From Candidatus Sericytochromatia bacterium (GTDB taxonomy: Bacteria > Cyanobacteriota > Sericytochromatia > UBA7694): a DNA stretch of 64,000 nt. This document shows, one piece after another, positions 28,204 to 52,758 of this stretch. A program made the position numbers and the translations under genes. The stretch's first letter is position 1. Each line of letters starts with the position of its first letter. Location: assembly GCA_015272195.1 (NCBI GenBank), contig JACYMC010000173.1, positions 28,642-92,641 on the forward strand, read 5' to 3'. Below the pieces are notes generated by a model, which was given only the letters and a program-made list of their open reading frames with translations, made no database searches and had not been told where the DNA came from.

Positions 28204-28307
28204 TTTTAATGTGACGGGCTCCGCTACGGCAGGCAAAAATTTTGTGCTAGAATGGACATGATTTTACCGTAATCGGGACTTATTTTGATGTCGCAAAGGA
28301 ACCCGTC

Positions 28308-32136: not shown

Positions 32137-32811
32137 TTAACCGCGTTCGCGGGGCTGTGGCCGAGCTGCCGGTTCTTTTTCGGCGTCGTTTTCAAAATCA
32201 ATAAAGGGAAAGGTGTTGATTTTACGGCCAATCATAATAAAGCTGAGGATATTGAGATAAGGGTTTTTCATCAGCTGGGACAATTGCCGGCTCAGGGTGG
32301 GGACTTGCTGGAGCTGGTAGACCACTTCGTCAATAAACTCAAAGCCACTTTGATCCAGCAGACGCCGCAGCGACTCGTTTGAAAAGTAGCGGATGTGGTT
32401 TTCACGCAGCGCACCGTCATCCTGATACGCCCAGCCTTCACTCATCAGATTGAGGATGGTTGAAATATGCCCGATATTATAGGTGACGGCATAAATCTGG
32501 CCCTGAGGCTGTAAAAACTTGCGCAGCGCCAGTAAGAGCCGGTCAGGATCCAGGGCCTGCTCCAGTGCGTGATACACAATCAGCAGATCATAACTTTTGG
32601 GCGGCAGGCTGAAATCCAGTTCAGGCTGTTCGCGACAGATATCCTGCCATTGTGTGCTTAGCTCATTGAGATAGACAAACTCTTTGCCTTCTGCTGCACA
32701 GAGTGCTGCCAGTTCAGGCAAAGGGTCTCCCAGGCAAAGAATTTTTTTCTGCTCGGGTTTGAGCATGGATTTCAGTTTGGCTTCCATATGCTGACGGTAT
32801 TGCGTATGCAT
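32137..32811 (-). CDS. Class I SAM-dependent methyltransferase, paralogous to the C-terminal domains of the two upstream rSAM-type proteins
   Basis: Motif I is KILCLGDPLPELAALCAAEG. Post-motif II is YDLLIVYHALEQALDPDRLLLALRKFLQPQGQIYAV, compare ILLSHALEKLRDPIALLQSLHAYLKPEGHILCI in the 645 aa protein. The start is taken at internal ATG 32811, 1 nt after the upstream stop. Confidence 0.65.
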   Translation of the reverse strand: MHTQYRQHMEAKLKSMLKPEQKKILCLGDPLPELAALCAAEGKEFVYLNELSTQWQDICREQPELDFSLPPKSYDLLIVYHALEQALDPDRLLLALRKFLQPQGQIYAVTYNIGHISTILNLMSEGWAYQDDGALRENHIRYFSNESLRRLLDQSGFEFIDEVVYQLQQVPTLSRQLSQLMKNPYLNILSFIMIGRKINTFPFIDFENDAEKEPAARPQPRERG

Positions 32812-32812
32812 T

Positions 32813-34768
32813 TTATAACTTCCTTGCAAGCAATTTGATTTCACTCGTATAGAGCAGGTGCTGGGGGACATGACGGGCACTGAAGTGTTCAATGTGCTGA
32901 CTCAGATTCTGCACCAGGGTGCGCATGCTCTCGATTTCCTCGATTGGGGCATGACCTATACTCAGTATTTCCATCTGACAGGCTTTGACCATATCTTCCA
33001 GCTGGGGCTGGGTGATCCAGCGCAGAACCGGGTAGTGTTGCTGGCTGTATTTGACGGGCCAGTCTAGAAATTTCAGCAGGAGGTAAATACACAGCGGATT
33101 CACCACGCTCAAAAAGACTTTACCCCCTGGCTTCAGGCTCTGACTGAGTCGCCGCAGTATTTCAAGTGGGCGACGCAAACCGTTCAGGCTGCCGGGCAGC
33201 AGCAGCATATCCAGTGGTTTTTGCGGCCATTCGCCGTGCAGATGGCCCTGACGAACGTGTAATTGCTGGATGTGATAGCCTTCCAGAAAGGGTTTACAGG
33301 CGGTCTCTGGTTGCAGGACCACTTCCAGCACCTGATCTTCGGGTGTAAAGTGTTCCCTGGCCAGGCTGCGCGCCACAACGGCGCGCCCCCAGTAGATAAT
33401 GTCCCCTTTATGTGGGCCCATAAAGCCCTGCTTTTCTTTGCCCAGGCGGGCAAAGGCATCATAAATTTCATGAAAGACCGCACCGCGCAGCTGGGTGTGG
33501 TAAAGGGGCAATTCCGGTGAAACATTTTCCCAGTCCATGGCATGCCATGGCATGCGCTCCAGAGTGGCGCTATCGGGCTTGTGCTTTTTGGCGTAAGCAT
33601 CCCACATGGGTGTGCCAGGAATCGGGGCCATCAGCGTGGTCTGCAGACGTTCAAACAGATGGTGGTGATCCTGCAGGTAAAGGTAAAACGCTGCCATTTG
33701 CTGGCGTGATGTCTGAGGTTCAGGGTTGAGAAAAACCAGGCCCAGGACATCAATCTGGATTTCTTTACAGGCCAGCAAAACCTGGCTCAGACGTTCCGGG
33801 CTGGCCTGTGACAACAGTTTGTTCTGGTGGCCAAAAGGCGCCAGCTGAAACATGAGTTTACGCACGTTCATGGCTTTGAGCTGTTTTAAAATGCCAGGTG
33901 TCAGCTGTTCCGGAGCGGCTGAAAGAATAAAAAAGATCTGCTGGTGTAATTTGCGCTCCACAATCAGGGCTTGAAGCTCTTTGAGGCGTTCAGGAAAAGC
34001 CAGTAACTGCTGATCGGCAATAAAAACCGGTGAAAAATACATGCGCTGGTGGGCTTCCAGGGGCAAAGACTGAAACAAAAAAGTATAATTGGCCACGATT
34101 TGCTCCAGCTGCTTCAGAAGGCTGACGCTGCTGAGCTGACGTGGCTTACGGGTCGGTGCGTAGGCCAGCGTTGTCAGCAGGTTATCCTGAATCCGGGCGG
34201 TCCGAATCACAGGGGCGCTGAAGCCCGGAAAGTCCAGCCAGAAACGGTAGTTGGGTGTGGGCAACTGGTTAAGGTCGGCAATCATCTGGCCCGGTGTGCC
34301 TGAATACATGCGCCCCTGACTCTGGTAGACAATGCCGGGGATCCGGCGGTAATGGGCACTTGTGGCATCGGGCTGTTTCAGATAGAGTTCCAGCAACTGC
34401 TTCAGCGGTACTTCCACTTCGCCAATAATACCAACGTCTACAGCGGGTGGCAGGCTTTGGGGCAGATATGAAATATGCGGGCCCGCCAGCCAGACAGGAA
34501 TATCCAGATAGGCTTTGATATTTTCGGCCATCGCGCTGGCCAGCTCAAAGCAGGCGCTGGTGGACCACAGCAGAATGACATCCGGGTGTTTGCTGGCCAG
34601 GCTTTTAAGCTCCAGCCCGATCACCGGGGAGACATTGTCGAAGGTCTGCTGAATAAACGGCACGATTTCCGATAGCGCGTGGGCGGCAAAATACTCCAGC
34701 CCACTGGCTTGTATGGCACCTTTTTTAAAGTGCTCTGGTTTAAAAAGAGGAAGCAGTCCTAGTTTCAT
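32813..34768 (-). CDS. Cysteine-less paralogue of the adjacent B12-binding radical-SAM/methyltransferase fusion (B12-like N-domain, degenerate rSAM core, MTase-like C-domain)
   Basis: The architecture is colinear with the 645 aa protein. The B12-domain region IGIIGEVEVPLKQLLELYLKQ matches IGVLGEGEETLFELMQLYQRN. The FTARGCPYKCTFCAS position reads IRTARIQDNLLTTLA, so no CxxxCxxC is present. Confidence 0.6.
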   Translation of the reverse strand: MKLGLLPLFKPEHFKKGAIQASGLEYFAAHALSEIVPFIQQTFDNVSPVIGLELKSLASKHPDVILLWSTSACFELASAMAENIKAYLDIPVWLAGPHISYLPQSLPPAVDVGIIGEVEVPLKQLLELYLKQPDATSAHYRRIPGIVYQSQGRMYSGTPGQMIADLNQLPTPNYRFWLDFPGFSAPVIRTARIQDNLLTTLAYAPTRKPRQLSSVSLLKQLEQIVANYTFLFQSLPLEAHQRMYFSPVFIADQQLLAFPERLKELQALIVERKLHQQIFFILSAAPEQLTPGILKQLKAMNVRKLMFQLAPFGHQNKLLSQASPERLSQVLLACKEIQIDVLGLVFLNPEPQTSRQQMAAFYLYLQDHHHLFERLQTTLMAPIPGTPMWDAYAKKHKPDSATLERMPWHAMDWENVSPELPLYHTQLRGAVFHEIYDAFARLGKEKQGFMGPHKGDIIYWGRAVVARSLAREHFTPEDQVLEVVLQPETACKPFLEGYHIQQLHVRQGHLHGEWPQKPLDMLLLPGSLNGLRRPLEILRRLSQSLKPGGKVFLSVVNPLCIYLLLKFLDWPVKYSQQHYPVLRWITQPQLEDMVKACQMEILSIGHAPIEEIESMRTLVQNLSQHIEHFSARHVPQHLLYTSEIKLLARKL

Positions 34769-34814
34769 GCCGGCATGATATCCGCAGGGGTCAGATCTTA
34801 AAAATTACCCTGTA

Positions 34815-36752
34815 CTATAGCACAGGGGCGGGCTTTTCTGAAGCCCGCAGTATGCGTCCGGCGCTTGTTGACGGGCTTTGTAAAACGCTGAGACAGGTCA
34901 CAGGAATTTCCTGCTGGCTCTGCCCCTCTGCATTCAGTAACTGCAAGGCCTGCTGCATTTTGTCTGACATCTGTACCGGGCTGGCGAGAAGCACCTGAGA
35001 CTGGCTTTCGTGCCAGCGGCTGCGTTTCAGCAGCGGCTGCAGACTCTGGTGACTGATAAAGCGCAGGGCATGGTGGTGGTTGACGCCAAAGGGGCTGGCT
35101 TCCCATTTGCCGCGCAGCAGTTGCTCCATCAGGGCCGGGTGACGGGCGTTATAGTAGATACACAGAATGTGTCCCTCGGGCTTTAGATACGCATGCAGGC
35201 TTTGAAGCAGGGCGATCGGATCGCGCAGTTTTTCGAGGGCGTGGCTGAGCAGAATCGTGGCGTATTGCTGTTTTGCTTCAATGGGCGTGAGTTCCGCTTT
35301 CCCTGAGGCAATGAGGATTTTGGTGACTTTCAGATCGGGCTGCAGATCGGCCAGGCAAAACGCTTCAAAGCCAATTTCGAGAACGGGTCCTTTGATGCTG
35401 ATATCCTCGAGCAGGGTTTTGTAGAGATGCTCAAAGTATTTGCGCTTGGTCAGCCAGGCATGCAGTTGCTGCTTACCGGCCTGCAGTGTGGTCTGAAAGA
35501 CCTGAAAGCGGTCGTAAATGCTTTCAAAGGTCTCTGGTCTCAGGTGCTGATTCATATACACAGAGCGTCCCCGCTCAAAACTGAGGTTAAGGGCATCCCA
35601 GTTTTCAAAGTTGGGGGGCAGAGCACCCAGATCCTGGGCTTGCTTCCAGAGTTCAGTGCCTGGAAAGGGCGTGGCATAGGCGATGGTGGGCTGGGCAAAA
35701 CGGTAGTGATTGCTTTGAATAAACCAGTAGGATCTGGCCATATCCTCTTCGGTTTCTTCGGGTACACCGATCATCATATTGCTGACCACGGGCAAATTAA
35801 AGCGCTCACAAATTTCCAGGGCCCGCTGGTTGTCACGGGCAGAGGTTTTGCCTTTGAGGGCGGTTAAAATGCGATCGCTGGCTGACTCCAGGCCAAAGCA
35901 AACCACCAGCCCGTTCATTTGCACGATCATCCGGGCAATTTCTTCATCAAAGACGCTGGCACGTGCGTTCAGCGAAAAGCCCACTTTTTTGTGCAGGCCT
36001 TTGGCCCGGATGGCATCTACAATGGCCCGCATGCGCTTTTTATTCAAGGGGAAGAGGTCATCATTGATGGGAATAATGCTTTGATCCGGAAAATGGCTGA
36101 CGATGTACTCGATTTCCTGAATCACTCGCTCCACTGAGTGGTAGCGGGTGCGCTGCCAAAAGCGGGTAGAGGCGCAAAAGGTGCACTTGTACGGGCAGCC
36201 CCGTGCGGTAAAAATGGGTTGCTGCCACTGGGTGTCTTTCAGCAATAGCTCCCGATTGGGCATGGGGATGCTGTCCATGTCTTCGATCCAGGCGCGTGGG
36301 GCAGTAATGATACGTTCGCCTTTGTGCCAGAATACCAGGCCATTGATTTTGCTCAGGTTTTCGGGGGTGGCTTCATTGCGCTGGTACAGCTGCATCAGCT
36401 CAAACAGGGTTTCTTCGCCTTCGCCCAGCACGCCAATGTCTACTTCGGGGGGCAGGGTTTCGGGGGCTGCTGAAATATGTTCACCGCCAACGATCAGGGG
36501 CACGCTGGCATCCAGTTGTTTAAAGTGCCGGGCGTGGTGAATGACGTCCTCAAAGGTTTCGGTAAACGAAGACAGACCAATGATATCCGGGCTCTGACGC
36601 AGCAGCGCGTCACGGTTATCGACTTCGAGAATGGTGTCATGAAAGTTGAGGTGGGTTTCAAGATAGGCCGACAGATAGCCGAACGACAGCGGCGCGATAA
36701 AACCCCGATCTTCGTAGTCTTCGCCTTTGAGATACATCATTCCCAGTCGCAT
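34815..36752 (-). CDS. B12-binding radical SAM protein (class B) fused to a C-terminal class I methyltransferase-like domain
   Basis: The N-terminal cobalamin-binding-type domain reads PLIVGGEHISAAPETLPPEVDIGVLGEGEET. The radical-SAM cluster motif is TARGCPYKCTFCAS. The C-terminal ~200 aa are homologous to the stand-alone MTase. A GGAGG SD lies 6 nt upstream. Confidence 0.8.
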   Translation of the reverse strand: MRLGMMYLKGEDYEDRGFIAPLSFGYLSAYLETHLNFHDTILEVDNRDALLRQSPDIIGLSSFTETFEDVIHHARHFKQLDASVPLIVGGEHISAAPETLPPEVDIGVLGEGEETLFELMQLYQRNEATPENLSKINGLVFWHKGERIITAPRAWIEDMDSIPMPNRELLLKDTQWQQPIFTARGCPYKCTFCASTRFWQRTRYHSVERVIQEIEYIVSHFPDQSIIPINDDLFPLNKKRMRAIVDAIRAKGLHKKVGFSLNARASVFDEEIARMIVQMNGLVVCFGLESASDRILTALKGKTSARDNQRALEICERFNLPVVSNMMIGVPEETEEDMARSYWFIQSNHYRFAQPTIAYATPFPGTELWKQAQDLGALPPNFENWDALNLSFERGRSVYMNQHLRPETFESIYDRFQVFQTTLQAGKQQLHAWLTKRKYFEHLYKTLLEDISIKGPVLEIGFEAFCLADLQPDLKVTKILIASGKAELTPIEAKQQYATILLSHALEKLRDPIALLQSLHAYLKPEGHILCIYYNARHPALMEQLLRGKWEASPFGVNHHHALRFISHQSLQPLLKRSRWHESQSQVLLASPVQMSDKMQQALQLLNAEGQSQQEIPVTCLSVLQSPSTSAGRILRASEKPAPVL

Positions 36753-36816: not shown

Positions 36817-37431
36817 CTAAAGATCCGGTAAAATATTTTTGAGCGGATCAATGCGGATGGCTGACATAGACAATTTGGGATCCAGACCAAACTCTGCCCG
36901 CCGCTCAACATCGTCCGCTTTCAGGCTGACTGTTACGGGGACATTTTTTTGTTTTGGAAACACCAGCTCCTGACTTTGATTGGCCTCCAGCCGGTCAATG
37001 ACTTTTTTAAGTTGACCATATTGAATCACAATGTTTTCGATGGTTTCATCCGATTGATTCACAATAAAAATTGAAGCGCTGTTCTGGCTATGTGGAAAGT
37101 AGCTGTATTGTATAAAGAAGAAGATGCCTGTCAGATTTAACAGCAAAATGGCAGCAGCTAGCGTTAGGGGTTTAGTGAAGCTGTGCTGGGGCCTTTTGGC
37201 TTCAGGCAGCTCGCTGATACGGTTCATTTGTTGATTGAACTGGTTCAGCAAATGCAGGGCAAAAAACCCCCCCAAAACGCTGACTCCCAAACCAAGCCAG
37301 GCCAGCCAGAGATTGGTGCTCAGTTTTAAGCCGAGCCAGAGAAGTATGGGAGCAAAAACAAAAACAAGGTTTTTTCGTTTGAAGGGTTCTGGTTTGAATG
37401 GGTCTGTAGATGTGCTCATGCTAACCGACAA
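36817..37431 (-). CDS. Small membrane protein (3 TM plus a soluble C-terminal domain), hypothetical
   Basis: The TM segments are LVFVFAPILLWLGLKL, LAWLGLGVSVLGGFFALHLL and LTLAAAILLLNLTGIFFFI. It sits between the pilin-like genes and the rSAM genes on the same strand. Its GC is lower than its neighbours. Confidence 0.5.
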   Translation of the reverse strand: MSVSMSTSTDPFKPEPFKRKNLVFVFAPILLWLGLKLSTNLWLAWLGLGVSVLGGFFALHLLNQFNQQMNRISELPEAKRPQHSFTKPLTLAAAILLLNLTGIFFFIQYSYFPHSQNSASIFIVNQSDETIENIVIQYGQLKKVIDRLEANQSQELVFPKQKNVPVTVSLKADDVERRAEFGLDPKLSMSAIRIDPLKNILPDL

Positions 37432-37455: not shown

Positions 37456-38583
37456 TTACAGGTCTCTGGCGTAAGCGGTGTGCAGGTAGGTGATGTCCAC
37501 AAAGCTGTTATGGCTGCTTTGACCCACGGCTGTTGTGCGAATCAGAATCGAGCGGCCGCTGCTGTGGCCCACAATGGCTGTTTCAAATCCCCTCGGAAAG
37601 GTTCCCAGGCTCAGGGCGGGCGTGGTATCGCTGGCCGGTATCACGTCCTGCGCGTTGGGGGGGCATGAGGGCACGGTGGGGTTATAAAAGCCAGGCACGG
37701 GGTTTCTGAGATTCATGGTCTGGCCGCCGTTTCCACTTTGTGTTTGATTGTAGGCAATGCTGTAGCGGGTATCAGATGAGCTGGGGAAGCGAAACACACT
37801 GGTGTGGCGTGCCTTGGGAATCTGAAAAGAAGCCCCTGCGCTGCTCAGACTGGTGCCAGCCCCTGCAACATTATAAAATGCGGTATTGGCATTGGCTGAA
37901 GACCGTTCCCAGGCAAAGTTAATGTTGTTGCTAATCAAGTCGCTGCGAATCGTGGACGCACTGCCCGGGAACAAGGTCAGCAGGCGTTCAAGTTGTTCTG
38001 CAGAGACGAAGCGCACACTTCGCCACTCAATCAAACGCTGACCCTGAAACACATTGTTCCCCTGATAAATGTCGTAGTCTGTATCATCGCTGATATAAAT
38101 ATATTTAAAGACATAGACATCAACCCGGGCGTCTATGCCGCCGCTGAAATCTCTGAAGGTGTCATCCAGTTCAGCGTACAGCAGCGCATTGCCCACACTG
38201 TTGGCCCGAAAAAAGTTCTCTGGCGACACAGCGCAGGTTTTTTCAATAGCCAGTGAACCAGACACCCGAATCGTTGGCAAGGTTGAGTCAGGGATAATGG
38301 CGGGTGAATCGCTCAGGCTGATTTTATTGCGATAGGCATTCCCCAGGGTGTCGTTGCCAAAGACCGCTTTGGCCTGGTTGAGGCCTTTGCTGAGGCGAAT
38401 GCTGCCTGACTGGAGCTCACTTTTAACCACAGCATACAGCTGTGTCACGTTATGTGAGCGCCAGCTGGTTTGCAGAAAGCTTACGCAGAGGGCGACCAGC
38501 GTAACCAGAATGGCCATGGCAATCATCAGCTCGACCAGTGAAAAACCTTTGGACCTTTTGAGGGTGTTTATGGTTTTACTCAT
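37456..38583 (-). CDS. Type IV pilin-like (minor pilin/pseudopilin) protein, 375 aa
   Basis: The prepilin N-terminal cleavage/methylation motif is KGFSLVELMIAMAILVTLVAL (Gly-1, Phe+1, Glu+5). Its start overlaps the upstream stop (ATGA). Confidence 0.8.
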   Translation of the reverse strand: MSKTINTLKRSKGFSLVELMIAMAILVTLVALCVSFLQTSWRSHNVTQLYAVVKSELQSGSIRLSKGLNQAKAVFGNDTLGNAYRNKISLSDSPAIIPDSTLPTIRVSGSLAIEKTCAVSPENFFRANSVGNALLYAELDDTFRDFSGGIDARVDVYVFKYIYISDDTDYDIYQGNNVFQGQRLIEWRSVRFVSAEQLERLLTLFPGSASTIRSDLISNNINFAWERSSANANTAFYNVAGAGTSLSSAGASFQIPKARHTSVFRFPSSSDTRYSIAYNQTQSGNGGQTMNLRNPVPGFYNPTVPSCPPNAQDVIPASDTTPALSLGTFPRGFETAIVGHSSGRSILIRTTAVGQSSHNSFVDITYLHTAYARDL

Positions 38584-41500
38584 CGGTTGATGGTCACCAG
38601 CACATCGTGATAGCCATAGCCCATTTCAGGAAAGCCTGCTCTGTAAACCTCTGCGCGCAGCAGATAGTTACCTTGCGGCAAGGTGCTGACGTCCCAGTTT
38701 ACAGTCGGTTGGGCTTTTTCAGACGCATCCAGTGTGTAGGGGCTAAACAGGCTTTTGGCTGGGTTGTACTGGTCTACCATTTCACGCGGCACTTCAGTAC
38801 CGTCATCGGCATAGCGCCAGGTGCGGCCGTTGTCGACGGAATACTTCAGGTTATAGACCAGGGGCGTGGTGTCCCACCAGTTGTCTGGGTAAGCCTGGGA
38901 GTATTTTTCGTTATCCCAGCGCTTCCAGGCCGTGGTGAAGTTGACCTCAATGCTGGCGGGATCGTCATAAGCGCGTTGTGCAGTGGGTGAGGTGATCTCA
39001 ATACGCGGTAACTGAACCGTACGGCCCGGGGCATCCCCTGGTATCGAAAGGTCACCCGCATCCATAAAGGTCTGCAGCGTACCGGCCTGTGACATGCGGG
39101 CCATCAGCATGACCCCTGTACCCGAGGTATTGGCAAAGCCATTGAGTAAGACATAGCCTGCCATTTCGTCACGCCCGCTGCGGGTCATTTTGACCATGCC
39201 GCTGGCAGTATTGGAGCTGCTGGAGTGGCGGTAATAGGTGTTTTGTCTGTTGGCCGTGCTGTCTACTGTGCCTGCACCGCTGTTAACAAAGCCCAGGGTA
39301 TTGCGCAGGCTGCTGATTTCAGGGTCGCCGTAACCACCAATCCCGCCGGTTGCGCCAGAGTCGATGGTAAAAGGGCGATTGGACGTGACGGTGTCAGGCA
39401 GGGTCAGGTTAAAGGCCCGGACCAGCAGGCGGCCCGCTTCGCCGGCGTCACCGTTTAAGACCGCATTGCCACCGGTGAAGCTGTGATTCACACGGCGATT
39501 GCCGCTGCCCGTGGGGTTACCGTTCATAAAACCACCTGAGCCAGTATGTTTCATGCGTCGCCGCCGGGTGCCGCTCAGCGCATAGGGGCCATTATCGACC
39601 GGTGATCTGAAGAAGCGGCGGTTATTCGTGGGCTCTGCGCTGGAGCGGTTGTGCGTTCCACTGACATATGAATGGTTGGGTAGGTTGCCGTTATCCACCC
39701 AGAACTGATAATCCTGATCCGGAAACAGCTCCTTTTGGGTGGGTTGAGCCCGCCAGCGCTCGTTGCCGCCGCCGGGAGTCGTATCGTCGGTGCTCAGGAT
39801 CGTGCGCCGTTCATCCCCTGTAATCTCGTTGATCAGGTTGTTGCTATTCGCCACGCTGCTGCCATCGGGACTTTGGCTCCAGGGCTGGCGACGAATCTGA
39901 AAGACTGCGTTGGTGCCGTCTGTACCCAGCTCCCCGCCAAGGGCGTGGTAATAATTGCTGTAACCGGAAACACTGTTGTAAATAGCGTTAGAGCGCAACA
40001 GGCCATGGTTAAAGAACTGAAAGTACCAGTTGAGATCCGTATCAATGCCTGAGAAGCTGGGGCCGCTGTTGCGGCTGAAGCCTTCTACACCTTTGTTGTT
40101 GGGGCCGCCCCAGTGGCGGCTGTAGCGATGGCGGACCTTGACATCGAGGTAAGGGGTATACAAAGCATCGCCGAGGTACTGGGCCTGCTCCACCTGGGGG
40201 ACCAAAAGGCTGTTGGCCGGCGGTGTGGTGGCTTCGAGAGTGAAAATATGCCCCATATAAGTGTAGGTTCGCGATACGTTATACAGGTGCGGGCGCATAT
40301 CCCGCTCATTTTCGTTGACGGGTGTTGCAGGGTTATTGGGCACATGCACATCACCGTCTCCCCAGACACCATCACAAAGCTCACGAATGGTGAGCGGACA
40401 GCCCAGCTCGTCGCTGTCGGGGGCGTTGCGATAAGGCGCTTCCCGGCGGGAAGCTGCCGGCGCGTCAGGATCAGCATCATTATGAACGATGCGGGTTTCA
40501 AGGGTCAGCTGCTGGCTGTTAAAATTGCTGCCCAGCACGCTGGCGCCTGTGTCAAGTGCCACGCGCCAGCGCGCGGTGTTTTTATAGCGGTCGCTATTGC
40601 CCTCTCTCAGATCGCGATCGTCAAAAGAGTCTGTGCCGTCATCTGCAACGGGTGCGGGAATGTATTCCAGTCCGTACAAGCGGCGGTCCTTGCGCAAGCC
40701 CGTGTTGCTGGGGCCGATAGGATGGCGTGTAGGCGTATCGTACAGCATCACCCGATAGCCACGCTGGGGAGCTCCCATCATCGTTTCGTCAATGGCTTCA
40801 ACGCTGAAGTCGCGATGACGCGTGACCGTCACCCCTGCAGGGACGGAGAGTGCTTGATTGGTTTGAATAACGGCTGTGGGTCCTGAGATGGCATTCACCT
40901 CGTTAATTCTGACGATCTGCTCATTGGCTCCGCCGGGATCGAGCACGATCAGCTGACCTCTGAGGTCGTCTCTGGCATCTGTGAGGCTGGCGCCCGCCAG
41001 GTCAGAGCTCCAGGTATTCAGCGTCAGGGTGGTGCCTGTTGCGGGCGCGGACGTCTGGCCCAGGATGCGGGCGGGGTAAAGGCAATCTGTTTCAGTCGCA
41101 CCAGGGGTGCAGCTCGGATCGTGGTTATCGGTAATCCGGCTGACGTTGGTACGCCCCTCATGCCGGCTGCTGTCGGTGCTCCAGCGCCGGTAGCGCACGT
41201 TTTCGCCGCCCACAATGCGTTCAATTTTGAGGGGGTTATTGGTAGACGTAAAGTCTGCGGGCGTAAAATTGGGGTAACGCAGGTAGCCGGGTCGGGTGAA
41301 GTCGTTATAGTTAGGCCCCTGACCGATGGTGGGAATAAAGAGTGAGGTTTTGGGAATCGAGTGGTCTTCTGGACTAACGGAGCTGCTGTAGCCTGTGTCG
41401 CCAGGGTTGCTCAGACGGTTTTCGCCAGGGTTAAGCTGCTCGTATGCATAGACACGCCAGGCGACTTCTGCGCCATTGTCGTAACGCAGATTTTCTGGAT

Positions 41501-42908
41501 GACTGACCACGCGTTTGTTTTGCAGTGAAACGTAGTTGGGGTCTATTTCGGTATCGCCGTTGCTTTGTTTGGCGGCAGGGAGGCTGGCCACATCGGGTGC
41601 GGGCGTACCGTTCAGTTTGAGAGCGATCTGATCGGGCTGCTTGGCCGGGTCAGAGTAGTTGCGGATCGGGGGCAAAGGCAGCAATTCGCCGTGCAGATTG
41701 ATGACAATCGCGTTGCGATAGCGCATTTCACCGCCCTGCATGGGGTCACCGTTATCGTTTAAGGGTGTGTTGAGATCTTCCAGGAAGTTGACCAGTGAGG
41801 GGTTGCGCGCAAAGAAGGGATCTGTAGTGGACAGACGTTTTTCCATGGCCAGTTGTTCGGGCCAGCGCATGACGTGGTTAAACTGGTCGGCCATGGCGTA
41901 GGGGCGGTAACCTGTAGCGTGTCCGGGCACATTAAATCCATTCACGTCATAGTGAGGGTGGTTGTTATTGACATGGGGAAAACGGGTGGTGTCGTCAGTA
42001 CGCACCCGTCCGCGAATGGCTGCCAGGGGGTAGTTCTCGTTGATGCTGCTATGGTTGATGCGCCCAGGATACAGGTAGATCCAGGGTAAAGGCTGATCAT
42101 TGGCTTCGTCAGCATCGTTGATGTAGGGCATATAATAAGGGTCGCGTCCATATCCCAAACGTGTGACAAAATGGCGGCGATAACGTAAGCCAGGGTTGCG
42201 TTGCTCCAAATCGGTCAGGGTCCGCTCAAAACTGGGGCGTAGATCCGCCAGGTCAACCCACCAGCTGGGGGCGTTTTCCATGGCAAGAATAAAGACATCA
42301 ACCACCTGGGTTGGGGGGGCGGCGGTCAGGTTGGTTTTGAGGATACCAGCCACAGATGCCAGGGGTTTGGGCAGGTCTTCGTTACTGTTGGGATCATAAC
42401 CAACCGGCAAATCGTTATTGTTGGGATCGGCATACCAGACAGACACTTTGACAAAGCGGGCAAACTCGTCGTTAGGTACCGGGTTGACCTGAACCTGGCG
42501 TACAAACTTCCACTTACCGCTGTTGCGCTGGTTGGCGCTGATCGGATCCCCCGGATCGTCAATCGATCTGGAAACCAGACCGTCAGGGCTATCGACCTCT
42601 TTGCGTTCGGTACTCAGAACATTGTTAAAGCGGGAACCGTCACTGAAGTTCTGCAGTTTGCTGATATCCGTTTCACGGTTGGCCTGAACAAAGGAACGCA
42701 GCTCCTCGAACATTTGTGTGGCTTTCTGAGCAGCAAAGGTGCGATCATTAACGCTGGTGGTGCGCTGCATGACCGTGGTTTGGACCGCCACAGCGCCGCC
42801 CACAGCCACCGAGAGCATGGCACTTGCCACCAGGACTTCCATCAAAGAAAAACCGCGTTGATTGCGGGTTTTGGTCCCTTTTTTCTTGTTTCGCTGGATC
42901 ATACTCAC
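38580..42908 (-). CDS. Giant (1442 aa) pilin-fused protein; candidate pilus tip adhesin/minor pilin
   Basis: Its N-terminus QRGFSLMEVLVASAMLSVAVGGAV is a class III prepilin signal with Glu+5. The body is long and Asn/Asp/Gly/Pro-rich with no further TM. ATGA overlaps lie at both ends (42905-42908 and 38580-38583). Confidence 0.75.
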   Translation of the reverse strand: MSMIQRNKKKGTKTRNQRGFSLMEVLVASAMLSVAVGGAVAVQTTVMQRTTSVNDRTFAAQKATQMFEELRSFVQANRETDISKLQNFSDGSRFNNVLSTERKEVDSPDGLVSRSIDDPGDPISANQRNSGKWKFVRQVQVNPVPNDEFARFVKVSVWYADPNNNDLPVGYDPNSNEDLPKPLASVAGILKTNLTAAPPTQVVDVFILAMENAPSWWVDLADLRPSFERTLTDLEQRNPGLRYRRHFVTRLGYGRDPYYMPYINDADEANDQPLPWIYLYPGRINHSSINENYPLAAIRGRVRTDDTTRFPHVNNNHPHYDVNGFNVPGHATGYRPYAMADQFNHVMRWPEQLAMEKRLSTTDPFFARNPSLVNFLEDLNTPLNDNGDPMQGGEMRYRNAIVINLHGELLPLPPIRNYSDPAKQPDQIALKLNGTPAPDVASLPAAKQSNGDTEIDPNYVSLQNKRVVSHPENLRYDNGAEVAWRVYAYEQLNPGENRLSNPGDTGYSSSVSPEDHSIPKTSLFIPTIGQGPNYNDFTRPGYLRYPNFTPADFTSTNNPLKIERIVGGENVRYRRWSTDSSRHEGRTNVSRITDNHDPSCTPGATETDCLYPARILGQTSAPATGTTLTLNTWSSDLAGASLTDARDDLRGQLIVLDPGGANEQIVRINEVNAISGPTAVIQTNQALSVPAGVTVTRHRDFSVEAIDETMMGAPQRGYRVMLYDTPTRHPIGPSNTGLRKDRRLYGLEYIPAPVADDGTDSFDDRDLREGNSDRYKNTARWRVALDTGASVLGSNFNSQQLTLETRIVHNDADPDAPAASRREAPYRNAPDSDELGCPLTIRELCDGVWGDGDVHVPNNPATPVNENERDMRPHLYNVSRTYTYMGHIFTLEATTPPANSLLVPQVEQAQYLGDALYTPYLDVKVRHRYSRHWGGPNNKGVEGFSRNSGPSFSGIDTDLNWYFQFFNHGLLRSNAIYNSVSGYSNYYHALGGELGTDGTNAVFQIRRQPWSQSPDGSSVANSNNLINEITGDERRTILSTDDTTPGGGNERWRAQPTQKELFPDQDYQFWVDNGNLPNHSYVSGTHNRSSAEPTNNRRFFRSPVDNGPYALSGTRRRRMKHTGSGGFMNGNPTGSGNRRVNHSFTGGNAVLNGDAGEAGRLLVRAFNLTLPDTVTSNRPFTIDSGATGGIGGYGDPEISSLRNTLGFVNSGAGTVDSTANRQNTYYRHSSSSNTASGMVKMTRSGRDEMAGYVLLNGFANTSGTGVMLMARMSQAGTLQTFMDAGDLSIPGDAPGRTVQLPRIEITSPTAQRAYDDPASIEVNFTTAWKRWDNEKYSQAYPDNWWDTTPLVYNLKYSVDNGRTWRYADDGTEVPREMVDQYNPAKSLFSPYTLDASEKAQPTVNWDVSTLPQGNYLLRAEVYRAGFPEMGYGYHDVLVTINR

Positions 42909-44131
42909 TCCACCTCAATGATTGAATAGGAAAGGTTGTTTTCGCGGTATAGACCCAGTCTGTTCTGGGTGTTGCGCACAATATTGTGATTGTATTCGAT
43001 ACTGGTATTGCCGGACGTGGCATTACAGTTCATGCGACCGGTGATAACGGCCCCACTGAGGGAGTTATCGCGCCCAACAGTCAGTTGGCCAGTAACATAA
43101 ATGATGCCGGTGAACAGGGAGTTGCTGTTGTTTTTCAACGTCAGGTTGCCATTGACATAAAGCAAGCCCTCTCCTGCCAGAGGCTTTTCTGGTGTAAAGG
43201 TAAAATTGCCCTGCAGATAGGTGATCGAAAAGGGCAAGCGTTCGGGCAGGCTGTTGACATTGGTGTAAACACGGTCTGATAAGCCTCTCAGCTCATTGTC
43301 TGTCACCCCAAAAAAGACTTCGGTTGTGAGCTGTTCTGGGTTTGACTCCCGCATGGCAAGGCCGCCGGGTGTAATTAAGGTTGCTGAAGGCAAAGAACCA
43401 CCTGAAAAATAATTGATGGCGCTGGTTGCATCATCGTCACCAATCAGATGGCAGCGGCTGCCAAAAGTATGGCCGCCACTGGATGCAGTCACGCTGACGG
43501 GCGAAGTGGGGGCGCGCATGGCAATACGCACAATTTCGCTTTTAACAGCAGCACGGCTTAAAATGCGGTTGGGCGCGTCTTCAGGGCCGGTATTAAAGCT
43601 GTAGGAATCACTGTTTTTGGTGAAGTCGTTGCGTATATAAACAATGCCTTCGCTGAAAATTGACCATACCGTGCCGTTGGGAATGCTGCTGCCGGCTGTT
43701 TTGGCACGTTGCACGCTGACATCCCGAACCAGCTGTGTACTGGCTGTGCTGCAGTCGCTGCGGGGAACAATATAGCGTCCATAAATATTGCCGGAGATCT
43801 GATAATCCCGCACAATACCCTGGCTCTCATCGATCGTTTCAGAAACCAGCTCGTCATCACTGTAAACCGGAGCAAAACCTTCATCTGCACAGCTGGAAGA
43901 AGCAGGAGCCTGAACGGGTTGTTGATCCTGATTCTTGAACCAGCCAATGGCATCCTGAAGACCGGCTTGCGCCACGTTACTGGCCTGGGCGTGGTCTGTA
44001 AATTCTTTGCTGGTGTCTTTGAGTGATTGAATGACCAGCCGCGTTGAGGCTGCACCCAGCAAAAGCATAACGGTTGTTAACATGAGCACGGTTGCGATGG
44101 CCAGGCCTGATTCATGATGGTGCTTGCGCAT
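42905..44131 (-). CDS. PilX-like minor pilin-family protein (PilX N-terminal domain)
   Basis: The N-terminus is MRKHHHESGLAIATVLMLTTVMLLLGAASTRLVIQSLKD. A GGGGAAAGAG SD lies upstream of ATG 44131; the ORF is open to 44197. Confidence 0.65.
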   Translation of the reverse strand: MRKHHHESGLAIATVLMLTTVMLLLGAASTRLVIQSLKDTSKEFTDHAQASNVAQAGLQDAIGWFKNQDQQPVQAPASSSCADEGFAPVYSDDELVSETIDESQGIVRDYQISGNIYGRYIVPRSDCSTASTQLVRDVSVQRAKTAGSSIPNGTVWSIFSEGIVYIRNDFTKNSDSYSFNTGPEDAPNRILSRAAVKSEIVRIAMRAPTSPVSVTASSGGHTFGSRCHLIGDDDATSAINYFSGGSLPSATLITPGGLAMRESNPEQLTTEVFFGVTDNELRGLSDRVYTNVNSLPERLPFSITYLQGNFTFTPEKPLAGEGLLYVNGNLTLKNNSNSLFTGIIYVTGQLTVGRDNSLSGAVITGRMNCNATSGNTSIEYNHNIVRNTQNRLGLYRENNLSYSIIEVE

Positions 44132-44410
44132 GCATCTCTTTCCCCACATCGTCTGTGCGCGTTCACCTGCTGACGAAAGCGTGTGGGAAAAGGCCATGCA
44201 GGAAGCCTGGCATTCATGATTTAGCTATCGCGTGCACAGGATAAGCAGGTGGGTTCCTGCGACCTGTTGCGATAATCATCGAACTGTCCTGAGAGAGAAA
44301 GACAGCCGGGTTCCACTTACACTAACGACATCTGAGAGAACAAACACATGGATTCGTTTGATGATCTTATTATAGGCGCAGGGTTTAAGTTTTGTAAATA
44401 GGTGTTCAGC

Positions 44411-44447
44411 TTAAAAAAAATAAAGCTGATGCTTTGAACATCAGCTT
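44411..44447 (-). terminator. Rho-independent terminator downstream of ftsZ (stem AAGCTGATG/CATCAGCTT, loop ctttgaa, followed on the minus strand by a T8 tract)
   Basis: A perfect 9 bp stem at 44423-44431/44439-44447 has its A-run at 44413-44420 on the plus strand, which is the U-tract for the minus-strand transcript. It lies 33 nt after the ftsZ stop. Confidence 0.8.
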
Positions 44448-44479
44448 TAATCAGGGTTTAAGCTTGCTAAGGTGTCAGC

Positions 44480-45841
44480 TTAACGTCGGGGCTGCAAAAA
44501 GGGGGGCAGCTCCAGCTGATCCGGTGGCGGATTATTATTGGGCGGTGTGGCTTGCACGGGTGGCGGCGCAGGCTGCTGCACCGGAGGGGGTGGCGGCGGA
44601 GCCTGAACCGGCGGCGCCGGAGCGGCAACCGGTGGCGGTGCTTGCTGCACCGGTGGTGTGGCTTGTTGTACAGGGGCCGACGCCTGTACGGGTGGCGGGG
44701 CTGCCGGCTGGGGGTGCTGCGCCACGGGCGCCGGGGCTGAGCCATTGCCTGATGCCGGCGCAGCAGGGGGTGCTGCGGGTTGAGCCGGTGGTGCCGGGGG
44801 CGGTGTATAGCTGGCAGCCGGTGGATTGGGGCGTGGCTGAGGCGTGGGTGCCGGACGGGCTTTTTCGGCCTGGCGGTTGAGGGGATGCTTCTGATCTTTA
44901 AAGCCGGTGGCAATCACGGTGATTTTGAGCTCGCCGTGCAGCCGCTCATCAATCACGGCGCCAAAGATAATGTTGGCGTCAGGGCTCGCCACGCCATAGA
45001 TCACTTCAGCAGCTTCATTAACCTCAAACAGGGTCAAATCGGAACCGCCTGTGACGTTAAAGATAATGCCGTTGGCGCCTTCAATCGACGCTTCCAGCAG
45101 CGGGCTGGCAATGGCCGCTTTGGAGGCGGCAGCAGCTCGGCCTTCGCCACTGGCGTGACCAATGCCCATCAGGGCGGAGCCCGCGCTGGCCATCACGGCT
45201 TTGATATCGGCAAAGTCAACGTTGATCAGGCCCGGAATGGTGATGATGTCTGAAATGCCCTGCACGCCCTGGCGCAGCACGTCGTCGGCCACCTGAAAGG
45301 CTTCCTGGATCGAGGTGCGCTTTTCGACCACGGTCAGCAGCCGATCGTTGGGGATCACAATCAGGGTATCGACCTGCTCGCGGAAGCTCTTGATGCCTTC
45401 TTCGGCCTGGCTCCAGCGGCGGCGGCCCTCAAAGGTAAAGGGGCGGGTGACAACACCGACGGTCAGTGCGCCCTGCTGGCGCGCAATTTCGGCCACAATC
45501 GGGGCACCACCGGTGCCTGAACCGCCGCCCATGCCGCAGGTAATAAAAACCATATCGGCACCCTCAAGGGCTGCGGCGACTTCATCGCGGCTTTCGTCGG
45601 CGGCTTTTTGCCCCACGACAGGGTTGCCCCCTGCACCGAGGCCACGGGTCACCTTCTGGCCGACCTGGATTTTGTATTCGGCCTGGGAGAGCTCCAGGGC
45701 CTGAGCGTCGGTGTTGATCGCAATGAACTCAACGCCGTTCAGACCGGCTGAGACCATGCGGTTAACGGCATTGCCGCCGCCGCCGCCAACACCGACGACT
45801 TTGATGTTTGCGACTGATGATAATCTGTTCATTGCATCCAT
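44480..45841 (-). CDS. ftsZ: Cell division GTPase FtsZ with an unusually long Pro/Ala/Gln-rich C-terminal linker
   Basis: The tubulin signature is GGGTGTG-type ([18 protein letters not shown]) with an N-terminal [16 protein letters not shown] ~125 aa Pro-rich linker ends in the conserved C-terminal peptide [13 protein letters not shown]. Confidence 0.95.
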
Positions 45842-45991
45842 GCCAGGATTTTACCTTCTCTTTCGCTCATTCGCTGTGGGCTGTGTTGCAGGAGGCCATG
45901 CACAGCTCTGGGCTAGCGCTTGTTCCACTGGTTGATTTGTTTTTCAGTACTGGCAATTATACTATAAATTGTGGGGTTTCGCAGTGGGATT

Positions 45992-46720
45992 TCAGCGTGT
46001 TTTGATAACCGGGTGTTTCCAGAAACGCAAATCCAGATAGGCAATGTCGGCCTGTTCTTTTTCGGCTGTTTTGAGACTGGCTTCAATCAGTTGCAGCTTG
46101 ACCGGCAGATCTTCTGCCCGGCCCAGCCACACTTTTAAATTGCGCTCATTCAGATGCAGAATCAGGTTTTGGGGATTACTGATATTAAAAACGCCGTCAA
46201 CCTGGAGGCGCCCCTGAGACTGCAGGGTTTCGAGCTGGCGCAGCAAGTCCAGGTTTGGGGTGGGTAGTACGGTTTGCAAAAGCCCCGGGTCGGCACTGAT
46301 TTGTAAGAGGCTTTTGGGTGCATGGCTGGCCGGTAGCGGCAGCACCACCCCTTCATGATCGATGACGCTGCTGGCGTTGACGCTGTAGGCGTAATGCTTT
46401 TTTTCATGCAGAATCAGATAAGCGGCCTTGCGTTCCTGCACTTTGATCACCAGCCGCGTGGGCAACAGCTCTCTTTCAAACTGGGCGGTCTGGACCAGCG
46501 GGTTTTGTTCAGCCAGGTCTTTAAGGGTCAGCGGATTGAGTCTGAGGACATGCTGACCCTTGATGTTTTGCGCGCTGACAAGCTGCTCGAGCCAGGCCTG
46601 GGTGTGGGGGCTGCTGCCGCGAATCTCGATATTCTGAATCCACCAGAAGTGGGCCGTCCAGATCATCCACAGGCACGAAGCCATCACCATGGCGGCCATG
46701 ATGCCCAGATAGTCGGGCAT
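45992..46720 (-). CDS. ftsQ: Cell division protein FtsQ/DivIB (POTRA domain)
   Basis: The TM segment is IMAAMVMASCLWMIW and is followed by POTRA-like IQNIEIRG...LKDLAEQNPLVQTAQFERELLPTRLVIKVQER. The start is taken at ATG 46720 (the ORF is open to 46816, which would overlap murB by 65 nt). Confidence 0.75.
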   Translation of the reverse strand: MPDYLGIMAAMVMASCLWMIWTAHFWWIQNIEIRGSSPHTQAWLEQLVSAQNIKGQHVLRLNPLTLKDLAEQNPLVQTAQFERELLPTRLVIKVQERKAAYLILHEKKHYAYSVNASSVIDHEGVVLPLPASHAPKSLLQISADPGLLQTVLPTPNLDLLRQLETLQSQGRLQVDGVFNISNPQNLILHLNERNLKVWLGRAEDLPVKLQLIEASLKTAEKEQADIAYLDLRFWKHPVIKTR

Positions 46721-46751
46721 GTGTCTGGCTGAAGAACGCCGGGGCACGGCC

Positions 46752-47756
46752 TCAGAACTCGCCCAGAAAAATGGCTTCGGGCTCCAGCAGAATCTGGTTT
46801 TTGTGCCAGACCTCATGCTGCAGATTGCGAATCAGCTGACAGGCATCCTGGGCCGAAGCTTTGCCCAGGTTGACAATAAAATTGGCGTGGCTGGGTGAGA
46901 CCTGTACTTTGCCCTGAACACGCCCTTTGGCGCCCAGCTGTTCAATCAAACGTCCGGCATAATCGCCGGGCGGATTGCGAAAAACAGAGCCGCAGTTGGG
47001 CTGGCGGATATCGTGCTGGGGTTTGCGGCGGGCGTCAGCAGCGTCAAAGCGTTCCTGAATGGCTTCTGCAGCGGCGGGCTGCAGTCGGATCGTGGCTTCC
47101 AGGACAATTTCAGCATTGAATTTATAATCACTCCAGCGGTAGCCGTGCTGAATCTGATCGCGTCGCCGCACCACCTTCTGACCCGAAGGGGTGAGGCTGG
47201 TGATGCTTTCGACCACGTCAAAAAATTCGGTCTGGCAAGCACCGGCGTTCATCGTGACCGCACCGCCCACGGTGCCCGGAATACCCCAGAGCTGCTCAAT
47301 ACCGCTGAGTTCCATGCTGATGGCTTTTTTGATCAGGGTACCCAGCCTGACGCCGGCCTGGGCCCGTACACGGCCATCGGGTAAAAAGGCAAAGTCTGCA
47401 AAACGATGGGTAATATGCATCACCAGTCCCGGCAACCCCTGATCAGAGATCAGAACATTGGAGCCGCCGCCCAGGATAGTCAGTGGTATGCCCTGGGTCT
47501 GGGTCAGCTTCAGAATCTGCTGGATTTCACTTTCGCTGCCCGGTGCAACATACCATTCGGCAGGCCCACCAATTCGCCAGGAAGTAAAAGGGGCAAGAGA
47601 CTTCCCGGATATAAAACTGTCAGACAACCTGGCGCTGGGGCCCGCGCTGAATGGGTGCGTAAACAATATTGTTTTCCTGTTCAGTTTTTGAATTGGGGGC
47701 CGCTGGCTTTCCCGCCAGCAAAAGTCCTGAAAGCTCTGTGATATTCCCTGCCCCAA
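46752..47756 (-). CDS. murB: UDP-N-acetylenolpyruvoylglucosamine reductase
   Basis: The FAD-binding MurB motifs are FTSWRIGGPAEWYV, ILGGGSNVL and GIPGTVGGAVTMNAGA. The ORF as given overlaps murC by 137 nt, so the true start is probably a downstream non-ATG codon near 47600. Confidence 0.8.
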   Translation of the reverse strand: MGQGISQSFQDFCWRESQRPPIQKLNRKTILFTHPFSAGPSARLSDSFISGKSLAPFTSWRIGGPAEWYVAPGSESEIQQILKLTQTQGIPLTILGGGSNVLISDQGLPGLVMHITHRFADFAFLPDGRVRAQAGVRLGTLIKKAISMELSGIEQLWGIPGTVGGAVTMNAGACQTEFFDVVESITSLTPSGQKVVRRRDQIQHGYRWSDYKFNAEIVLEATIRLQPAAAEAIQERFDAADARRKPQHDIRQPNCGSVFRNPPGDYAGRLIEQLGAKGRVQGKVQVSPSHANFIVNLGKASAQDACQLIRNLQHEVWHKNQILLEPEAIFLGEF

Positions 47757-52751: not shown

Positions 52752-52758
52752 GACCCTT

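Follow-up and report, generated by a model that had tools for sequence, protein, structure and literature searches.

The 64 kb stretch of DNA analysed here (the window) encodes a 1,440-residue protein (the giant, or G) that probably is a modular minor pilin of PilV/GspI type from a widespread new family, acting in a tip/priming complex and displaying a ligand-binding, possibly catalytic, module. Its gene lies between those of two pilin-like partners, K and J, with which it forms a trio (slashes mark cleavage positions of the prepilin motifs):

44421..44449, (-), hairpin plus T-run terminator past ftsZ, parting the trio from the dcw cluster (a pattern match only)
44369..44398, (-), promoter-like site 5' of the trio, 11/12 consensus matches (a pattern match only)
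42905..44197, (-), upstream partner K, 430 aa; pilin-like helix at the N-terminus (HHESG/LAIAT), no Glu+5; beta-solenoid-like repeat at the C-terminus
38580..42902, (-), giant pilin gene (G), 1,440 aa plus stop; the open reading frame reaches a GTG at 42908
42852..42902, (-), leader peptide of the giant, residues 1-17 (MIQRNKKKGTKTRNQRG), with Gly-1 at its end; passes the N_methyl and TIGR02532 cut-offs
42318..42851, (-), pilin module, residues 18-195, of PilV/GspI type; Phe+1, Glu+5, small beta-sheet, long alpha1 helix (residues 20-73)
37456..38583, (-), downstream partner J, 375 aa; prepilin motif RSKG/FSLVE with Glu+5

The gene, its signal peptide and its pilin head

The open reading frame fills positions 38580..42908 of the minus strand exactly, with 1,442 codons counted from the GTG. 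The start codon is likely the ATG at 42902, two codons past the GTG; a Shine-Dalgarno-like sequence, GGTGGAG, lies 8–14 nt 5' of it. Read from this ATG, the protein of 1,440 aa begins with MIQRNKKKGTKTRNQRG followed by FSLMEVLV, is 100% identical to NCBI MBF2054385.1 (a Candidatus Sericytochromatia MAG) and has a mature mass of ~158 kDa. The original prediction had raised the concern that a frameshift might have fused two genes. Full-length, colinear relatives with 34–74% identity to the giant were found in independent assemblies, which rules out a fusion artefact and confirms the giant pilin open reading frame as one real gene.

The N-terminus had been read as a class III signal peptide with Gly-1, Phe+1 and Glu+5, and this reading held when checked against curated HMMs. 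The prepilin motif occupies residues 16–25 (Gly17 at –1, Phe18 at +1, Glu22 at +5; cleavage site NQRG/FSLME), a hydrophobic stretch runs over residues 17–42, and the motif passes both the Pfam N_methyl model PF07963 (26.2 bits, curated cut-off 21.2) and TIGR02532 (21.8, cut-off 16.3). In an alignment of 62 relatives Glu22 does not vary and Gly17 is kept at 90% or more, and conservation of Gly-1 and Glu+5 extends to more than 100 relatives. A regular expression for the prepilin motif had just two matches in the six frames of the window, both at the N-termini of adjacent open reading frames, the giant and J.

In the predicted structure, residues 18–195 show the N-terminal hydrophobic half of a long alpha1 helix and an antiparallel beta-sheet, the hallmarks of a pilin. 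A fold search with the model returned GspI, XcpV and EpsI as the best solved-structure matches, and the head superposes best on GspI-type structures. Among named HMMs PilV scored best, at 36.8 bits versus a cut-off of 52.2, and GspI reached 16.9 versus 44.35 (TIGR02523 / TIGR01707 test), so that both scores lie below the curated cut-offs. PilV and GspI were also the commonest named family matches among 36 family members (35/36 and 20/36, respectively). The anchor of the giant is thus a PilV/GspI-type minor pilin specifically, not a generic pilin. Like GspI/XcpV/EpsI and PilV, which supply the 'I' subunit in priming/tip complexes (GspI-J-K or PilV-W-X), the giant has a class III signal with Glu5, and its gene adjoins one that is J-like and one that is K-like and Glu5-less. 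In contrast to known I subunits, which are the smallest minor pilins (~100–190 aa), the giant, at 1,440 aa, falls outside the size range of the type by ~1,250 residues; its HMM scores are lower than the cut-offs, and its locus has no H/FimU-type adaptor gene.

Body lobes and cassettes

The original prediction of a very large pilin-anchored protein was borne out: residues 18–195 form an N-terminal pilin module that is followed by ~1,250 residues (~140 kDa) of further domains, the arrangement that defines a modular pilin. For structure prediction the giant was divided into two overlapping halves, with alignments of 62 sequences, and each half was modelled by itself. The body consists of two strongly conserved lobes flanking two hypervariable cassettes:

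41433..42317, (-), conserved N-lobe, residues 196-490; motifs ENxPxWW, YGRDPYY, ADQFNH, NLHGELLPLPP, RNYSDPAK and SHPE
40752..41432, (-), variable cassette 1, residues 491-717; beta-rich, modelled with confidence, Cys598/Cys607 pair
40488..40751, (-), conserved C-lobe, first part, residues 718-805; motifs LYGLEYIPxPV and KNTARW
40281..40487, (-), variable site 2, residues 806-874; Cys835/Cys843 pair, conserved positions 0/69
39006..40280, (-), conserved C-lobe, main part, residues 875-1299
38583..39005, (-), C-terminal beta-sandwich, residues 1300-1440; Asp-box, extreme C-terminus conserved (last strand ends in VLVTINR)
38817-38840, (-), Asp-box SVDNGRTW, residues 1355-1362

About 120 of the 140 positions of the giant that are at least 90% conserved across phyla lie in the body, and many of the near-invariant ones, grouped in tight motifs, are D, E, H, R, N or Y. 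Body conservation equals or exceeds that of the pilin head, a level unusual for a plain adhesin. The description of the body as Asn/Asp/Gly-rich was mildly correct (N 8.2%, G 8.0%, D 7.2% in the giant); R (7.7%), T (7.6%), S (7.3%) and P (7.2%) are similarly high. Profile–profile comparison of six regions revealed no internal duplication.

Kinship with PilY1, proposed originally, found no support. N_methyl was the sole Pfam match to the giant at E ≤ 10, with no match to PilY1_C, vWA or a lectin domain even at that threshold; a regular expression for the calcium-binding DxDxDG loop had no hit, and no beta-propeller was detected by Pfam or by fold searches of the half models. The latter searches returned no solved structure resembling the body beyond small Ig-like or beta-barrel domains. 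Sequence searches of solved structures (the single sequence, and profiles of G, K and J) matched the pilin N-helix only, plus a weak beta-solenoid match for K, and neither the window protein nor 36 relatives matched HpsA, Verru_Chthon protein A or MshQ (E ≤ 0.05). The body forms a conserved family in its own right rather than a known adhesin joined to a pilin. In our models, its ~900-residue domain is predicted with confidence and has no solved relative.

What stands of the adhesin proposal is a plausible binding role. The cassettes of relatives hold PA14, CBM6/35 or LamG sugar-binding domains, with Laminin_G_3 occupying variable site 2 in the relative P0068; a Pfam search recognised no binding domain in the window protein's own cassettes. 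Judged from the domains of the relatives, the cassettes most likely bind a ligand, and their positions are natural insertion sites.

The K-G-J trio and its distribution

K's stop codon lies 2 nt ahead of the giant's ATG, and J's ATG overlaps the giant's TGA (ATGA); the three genes are translationally coupled. At 82 loci with orthologues of the giant, K was upstream in 73/82 and J downstream in 74/82, with order and strand kept, so that the trio recurs in ~90% of them. Glu+5 is present in G and J, whereas K has a hydrophobic residue at +5. The K relatives share this feature, Glu being found in just 1/73 regular-expression calls. A Glu5-less pilin has been described as the signature of a capping subunit (preprint 10.64898/2026.02.12.705559).

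Typing of the partners is weak. The scores for PilV, GspI, GspJ, GspK and PilX_N were all under the curated cut-offs; K scored 17.4 with PilX_N (cut-off 25.5) and 19.5 with DUF7305 (cut-off 27), and GspK matched weakly in 2/39 K members (E 0.015). A profile search with K returned 26 relatives without names and no tie to annotated PilX or GspK, and the K profile weakly matched ice-binding beta-solenoids (E 0.008). From these below-cut-off matches, K appears PilX/GspK-like and J PilW/GspJ-like.

The 64 kb window contains no gene for filament machinery, a prepilin peptidase, a major pilin or an adaptor of FimU/GspH type, and none lies within 10 kb of the trio at seven loci with Pfam-annotated gene calls; the exception was one small pilin-like gene ~6 kb from the trio at locus L083. 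Two other candidates for core parts were rejected: the downstream B12-radical-SAM and methyltransferase genes, because they accompany the trio in Sericytochromatia only, and the 204-aa membrane protein after J, because it was absent from every other locus examined.

Relatives of the giant, ~1,000–1,720 aa long, occur in at least 302 species-level genomes from several phyla. The trio was found in Elusimicrobia, Acidobacteriota/Thermoanaerobaculia, Planctomycetota (including anammox relatives), FCPU426, Eisenbacteria and Sericytochromatia, and it thus constitutes a defined three-gene module in poorly studied phyla. Curated family libraries name the family by its first 25 residues only, a gap that it could fill, and literature searches on giant pilins, on the Verru_Chthon cassette, on pili of Sericytochromatia and on pilins of Elusimicrobia yielded no account of it. 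Minor-pilin tip complexes decide the role of a type IV filament. To our knowledge, their passengers are known only from a few Proteobacteria, Firmicutes, Thermus and Cyanobacteria.

Models of function and known systems

Because its gene lies between those of two partner minor pilins, one Glu5-less and one with Glu5, the giant most likely resides at the tip of a type IV filament; the tip part of the original tip-adhesin proposal therefore remains plausible apart from PilY1. As its motif suggests, the class III signal peptide would put the giant into the inner membrane, where a prepilin peptidase encoded elsewhere would cut past Gly17 and methylate Phe18. If GspI-J-K and PilV-W-X(-Y1) are a guide, J would pair with the pilin module of the giant, and K, with its putative beta-solenoid, would cap the G-J pair; the K-G-J trimer would prime polymerisation of the filament and end at its tip. 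The ~140 kDa passenger would then ride the tip in a single copy, with its two conserved lobes, C-terminal Ig-like sandwich and two hypervariable cassettes. The lobes would act as scaffold or plug, perhaps with a conserved pocket for binding or catalysis.

If the two lobes were a catalytic domain, acting for example on polysaccharide, and the cassettes carbohydrate-binding modules, the filament would present an enzyme and not a simple adhesin. The tightly clustered, highly conserved polar positions of the body would suit this reading; PA14, CBM6/35 and LamG are typical accessory modules of carbohydrate-active enzymes, and a peptidase module is listed among modular pilins by Raynaud et al. However, Pfam, NCBIfam, PDB sequence and fold searches gave no enzyme match to the giant and no catalytic motif was recognised, and since each half was modelled alone, the conserved residues may equally be lobe–lobe or partner interfaces. 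We therefore regard a pilus-tip enzyme as rather improbable. A broader proposal, which we consider unlikely, is that K-G-J represents an undescribed, phylum-spanning class of tip complex in which a ~900-residue, two-lobed core of new fold serves as a catalytic or receptor machine, aimed by swappable sugar-binding cassettes. If true, the filament would be a retractable arm presenting an enzyme or a universal-ligand receptor, beyond a sticky tip.

The remaining alternatives place the giant differently or give it another origin. If the trio primed a short T2SS-like or Hps-like pseudopilus that stays in the envelope, the giant would cap it and serve as its piston head or as an adaptor for substrates rather than as a surface adhesin. 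The trio is unlinked to pilus genes, and family members show weak matches to HpsB and HpsC (polysaccharide-secretion pseudopilins) and to GspH/GspJ. The best structural matches of the head, T2SS GspI proteins, also point this way, but T4P PilV and T2SS GspI are structurally equivalent, so this match does not discriminate between the two systems; PilV moreover outscores GspI, and the sugar-binding cassettes of relatives suggest external ligands. There seems to be only a small chance that the pseudopilus reading applies. The absence of machinery genes nearby would also fit an envelope protein that borrows the class III signal as an anchor or export tag and forms no filament, for which archaeal bindosome sugar-binding proteins with class III signals (PMC3047682) set a precedent. 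The invariant Glu+5, the retention of a complete GspI-like head, and the presence of two pilin-like partners with the E5/no-E5 pattern in ~90% of loci make such a role very improbable. Least credible of all is a PilY1/PilC homologue fused to a pilin: its size is near PilY1's and a tip position is presumed for both, but as homology it is refuted by the searches above.

The giant can also be compared with the modular pilins (Raynaud et al. 2021), which include S. sanguinis PilB with a vWA module and PilC with a lectin module, and also CofB; bulky modules of this kind are expected at the filament tip (PMC8179133). The giant shares the combination of a pilin module with a bulky passenger expected at the tip, and its relatives carry lectin-type domains. 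Unlike in those proteins, the passenger is about 10 times as large as the pilin module, has no solved structural relative and belongs to a conserved multi-phylum family. It differs from PilB in that the passenger is without a database signature, and in this it resembles the CofB and ComZ cases.

In Thermus ComZ, cyanobacterial PilX/HpsA and Caulobacter CpaL/TadG, an enlarged minor pilin of the priming complex likewise assumes PilY1-like tip roles. There it is the Glu5-less cap (K/PilX type) that has grown large, whereas at the giant's locus the cap has ~400 aa and the Glu5-bearing PilV/GspI-type subunit is enlarged. A very large module can thus be carried by the I-position subunit, and not just by the K cap or by a separate PilY1. 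The gene order PilX-PilV-PilW reported for core minor pilin sets of cyanobacteria is matched by K-G-J, and the weak likeness of K's C-terminus to ice-binding beta-solenoids resembles what has been described for cyanobacterial PilX. PilY1/PilC and MshQ are similar to the giant in mass and in a presumed single tip copy beside minor pilins, but they lack a class III signal and attach through a C-terminal strand, with which PilY1 completes the sheet of PilX, and PilY1/PilC has a beta-propeller, which was not detected in the giant. The Verru_Chthon cassette (TIGR02596-02600) is another small, recurring cassette of pilin-like proteins, and by its TIGRFAM description it also encodes a very large protein A. 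J and K relatives weakly match, below cut-off, proteins B, C and D of that cassette.

A pilin-like giant with a probable I-type head

The open reading frame at 38580..42908 lies on the minus strand (1,442 codons counted from its GTG; the plus-strand translation has stops throughout), and its product opens VSMIQRNKKKGTKTRNQRGFSLMEVLV. An ATG at 42902, two codons inside the GTG frame, is preceded by a Shine-Dalgarno-like GGTGGAG, and a start there gives a 1,440-aa protein (G, the giant). NCBI lists an identical sequence, MBF2054385.1, for a Candidatus Sericytochromatia MAG and labels it only 'prepilin-type N-terminal cleavage/methylation domain-containing protein'. Mature G has a computed mass of ~158 kDa and a pI of 5.6; by composition, its body, originally described as Asn/Asp/Gly-rich, is so only to a mild degree. 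The predicted class III signal is genuine, with Gly17 (–1), Phe18 (+1) and Glu22 (+5) all in place, together with a hydrophobic stretch (residues 17–42) after the motif. Both Pfam N_methyl (26.2; cut-off 21.2) and TIGR02532 (21.8; cut-off 16.3) matched G, and among its aligned relatives Glu22 is invariant and Gly17 almost so. A prepilin motif regular expression applied to six frames of the window matched only twice, at the N-termini of the G ORF and its neighbour. G is very probably pilin-like and processed. A fusion artefact is excluded, as relatives in independent assemblies are colinear over their full length (34–74% identity), and an assembly or annotation artefact can practically be dismissed.

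The solved structures that best matched the pilin head of G were GspI, XcpV and EpsI, with no H-, J- or K-type minor pilin or major pilin in the list; Tt1218 is itself the pilin of GspI type in Thermus (PMC5131608). The best named family for G was PilV (TIGR02523, 36.8 bits, under the 52.2 cut-off). PilV was also best in 35 of 36 relatives, GspI was matched by 20 of the 36, and one relative is already called 'PilV family' by NCBI. We therefore assign the anchor, with good confidence, to the I-type (PilV/GspI) minor pilins by fold and best sequence match rather than by curated thresholds. Outside the pilin part no Pfam match was found at E ≤ 10, and the pilin helix was the sole match in PDB sequence searches with either G or the family profile. 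Neither a propeller nor a vWA domain, a lectin or a DxDxDG loop was detected in G; therefore the homology to PilY1 suggested in the original prediction is not supported.

Domain layout and family of the giant

G is too long for the 1,200-residue modelling limit and was therefore modelled as two separate, overlapping halves with 62-sequence alignments (residues 1–720, mean pLDDT 79, pTM 0.55; residues 700–1440, mean pLDDT 86, pTM 0.84). The layout was derived from BLAST against 120 relatives and per-column conservation.

Layout of G (in brackets, columns at least 90% conserved)
Residues 1–17: leader, ending in Gly-1 (1/17)
Residues 18–195: pilin module, helix 20–73 plus a small sheet (19/173)
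Residues 196–490: conserved N-lobe, with motifs such as ENxPxWW, YGRDPYY, ADQFNH, NLHGELLPLPP, RNYSDPAK and SHPE (50/292)
Residues 491–717: variable cassette 1, beta-rich, modelled with confidence (1/227)
Residues 718–805 and 875–1299: conserved C-lobe, interrupted by variable site 2 (56/513)
Residues 806–874: variable site 2 (0/69)
Residues 1300–1440: C-terminal beta-sandwich, with Asp-box SVDNGRTW at 1355–1362 (14/141)

No internal duplication was found in G, which has only four cysteines, as two close pairs. Its last ~25 residues are conserved to the final residue family-wide (consensus ...RVEAYR....LHYSYHQ....I.R; window ...YHDVLVTINR). Recent work describes PilY1 and CpaL as donating a C-terminal strand to the K subunit, and by analogy the extreme C-terminus of G may have a docking role; in the 700–1440 half-model it lies inside its own beta-sandwich.

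A word-indexed search returned 310 relatives, and searching 1.84 billion representatives exhaustively with a profile gave 435 clusters at E ≤ 1e-30, the best 150 of which were nearly all full-length (1,000–1,720 aa, starting at the pilin N-terminus), with few fragments. When one genome per species was scanned, 302 genomes contained relatives, some of them in two or three copies. Hosts include Elusimicrobia, Acidobacteriota/Thermoanaerobaculia (among them CP011806, 'Acidobacteria bacterium Mor1'), Planctomycetota (Brocadiia, Phycisphaerales), FCPU426, Eisenbacteria and others. Known domains were recognized at variable sites of several relatives.

Domains at variable sites of relatives of G
PA14: P0043, P0061, P0067
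CBM6/CBM35: P0107, P0077
Laminin_G_3: P0068, site 2
Baseplate_J-like segment: P0054

The long Sericytochromatia-type cassettes, the window's included, had no Pfam match. The picture is of a two-lobed, conserved chassis into which cassettes are swapped, several of them sugar-binding modules.

The K-G-J trio and its proposed role

G lies between K (430 aa, upstream, its stop 2 nt before the ATG of G) and J (375 aa, downstream, its ATG overlapping the TGA of G). A promoter-like site precedes K (11/12 consensus matches, a pattern match only). J is a prepilin (RSKG|FSLVE; N_methyl 30.3 bits) with weak N-terminal matches to ComGE, GspJ and ComGF. K has a pilin-like, hydrophobic N-terminus without Glu+5 (...HHESG|LAIAT), weak PilX_N and DUF7305 matches and a C-terminal repeat (G.L.V.GNLT....SNS.F.G.IYVTG); its profile weakly matched ice-binding beta-solenoids. 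Order and strand are kept in the compared loci, with a K orthologue flanking G in 73 of 82 and a J orthologue in 74 of 82, while the surrounding genes differ and are unrelated between loci. Across these loci G and J carry Glu+5 and K a hydrophobic residue there. K and J were typed by sub-threshold HMM matches, the Glu5 pattern and synteny. Absence of Glu5 marks the capping subunit (PilX/GspK), the gene order PilX-PilV-PilW(-FimT) has been reported for core minor pilin sets of cyanobacteria, and cyanobacterial PilX bears a beta-solenoid like those of ice-binding proteins (preprint 10.64898/2026.02.12.705559). Neither the window nor the 10 kb around the trio at the seven loci with Pfam-annotated gene calls contains a gene for an assembly ATPase, platform, secretin, prepilin peptidase or major pilin, or one of FimU/GspH type, except for a small pilin-like gene ~6 kb away in one locus (L083).

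Beyond the signal motif, GspI-like head, domain layout, family and coupled, conserved trio with its Glu5 pattern, which this analysis established, a mechanism can be proposed by analogy with the GspI-J-K and PilV-W-X-Y1 priming complexes. G would enter the inner membrane, be cut after Gly17 and methylated, and pair with J, with K as cap; the trimer would prime a type IV filament whose machinery is encoded elsewhere and would end up at the filament tip. G is placed at the tip because its ~140 kDa body would not fit along the shaft, an argument also made for modular pilins (Raynaud et al., 2021). The cassettes most likely bind ligand, presumably glycans in the relatives, and the conserved lobes may form a chassis or plug. 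We favour, with some reservation, this whole reading of an I-type tip or priming trio with ligand-binding cassettes, and hold its tip or priming component to be somewhat probable; a glycan or adhesin role for the window's G itself is a tentative suggestion.

An enzyme presented at the tip is suggested by how unusually well polar residues of G are conserved and by accessory modules in the style of CAZymes, but no catalytic similarity supports it, and we consider it unlikely. We judge equally unlikely a pseudopilus cap for secretion, although PilV and GspI are structurally indistinguishable. That G is an envelope protein merely borrowing a class III signal is hard to reconcile with the invariant Glu5 and the partner pilins, and is very unlikely; a PilY1 fusion, whose homology is not supported, is more improbable still.

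The concept of modular pilins is already known (Raynaud et al., 2021), as are the enlarged tip pilins ComZ, cyanobacterial PilX/HpsA and CpaL, and the large non-pilin tip proteins PilY1 and MshQ. Here, however, enlargement affects the Glu5-bearing I-type pilin, usually the smallest subunit, whereas elsewhere the large component is the K cap or else a protein of its own. The passenger is a conserved family of 1,000–1,700 aa without a curated model or solved structural relative. Its defined cassette sites set it apart from known enlarged pilins, and a self-contained trio that moves through several little-studied phyla sets it apart from known systems. We found no description of the family in the searched literature; public annotation covers the first ~25 residues only, or reads 'PilV family'.

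Neighbouring genes and other features of the window

Two or three complete trios per genome (loci L015/L019/L021, L013/L020 and L065/L068) occur in Elusimicrobia RIFOXYD2_FULL_34_15, UBA9627 and an unclassified MAG, recalling Myxococcus with its multiple minor-pilin/PilY1 sets.

Features of the window outside the trio
36817–37431 (–): 204-aa ORF, TTG start, about three hydrophobic segments, directly after J
32137–36752 (–): three genes after the trio, namely a 645-aa B12-binding radical SAM enzyme fused to a class-I methyltransferase domain, a 651-aa paralogue (B12-binding and methyltransferase matches, no radical-SAM Pfam match) and a 251-aa methyltransferase
26866–32063 (+): SAF and RcpC/CpaB-like protein (Tad-pilus type), then a 1,251-aa surface protein with He_PIG, PKD and lamin-tail domains
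44449–44421: strong hairpin terminator after ftsZ (pattern match only)
44480–53769 (–): cell-division/cell-wall cluster, mraY via murC, murB and ftsQ to ftsZ
56–2338 (+): 760-aa protein bearing two tandem protein-kinase domains
11223–12437 (–): membrane urate-oxidase-like protein (Urate_ox_N, E 7e-105), with a weak C-terminal haem-binding domain match

The 204-aa ORF had no Pfam or NCBIfam match and no tblastn match in the 82 related loci; it may be spurious or lineage-specific. The three B12-radical-SAM/methyltransferase genes also follow the trio in the Sericytochromatia loci L003 and L085 and not in other phyla, and were dropped as parts of the system since they accompany it only in Sericytochromatia. 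The SAF/RcpC and He_PIG/PKD pair also adjoins the trio in L003. Only ~150 nt separate ftsQ from ftsZ in the window, so no ftsA lies there; in L085 a 191-aa unannotated gene stands between the two.
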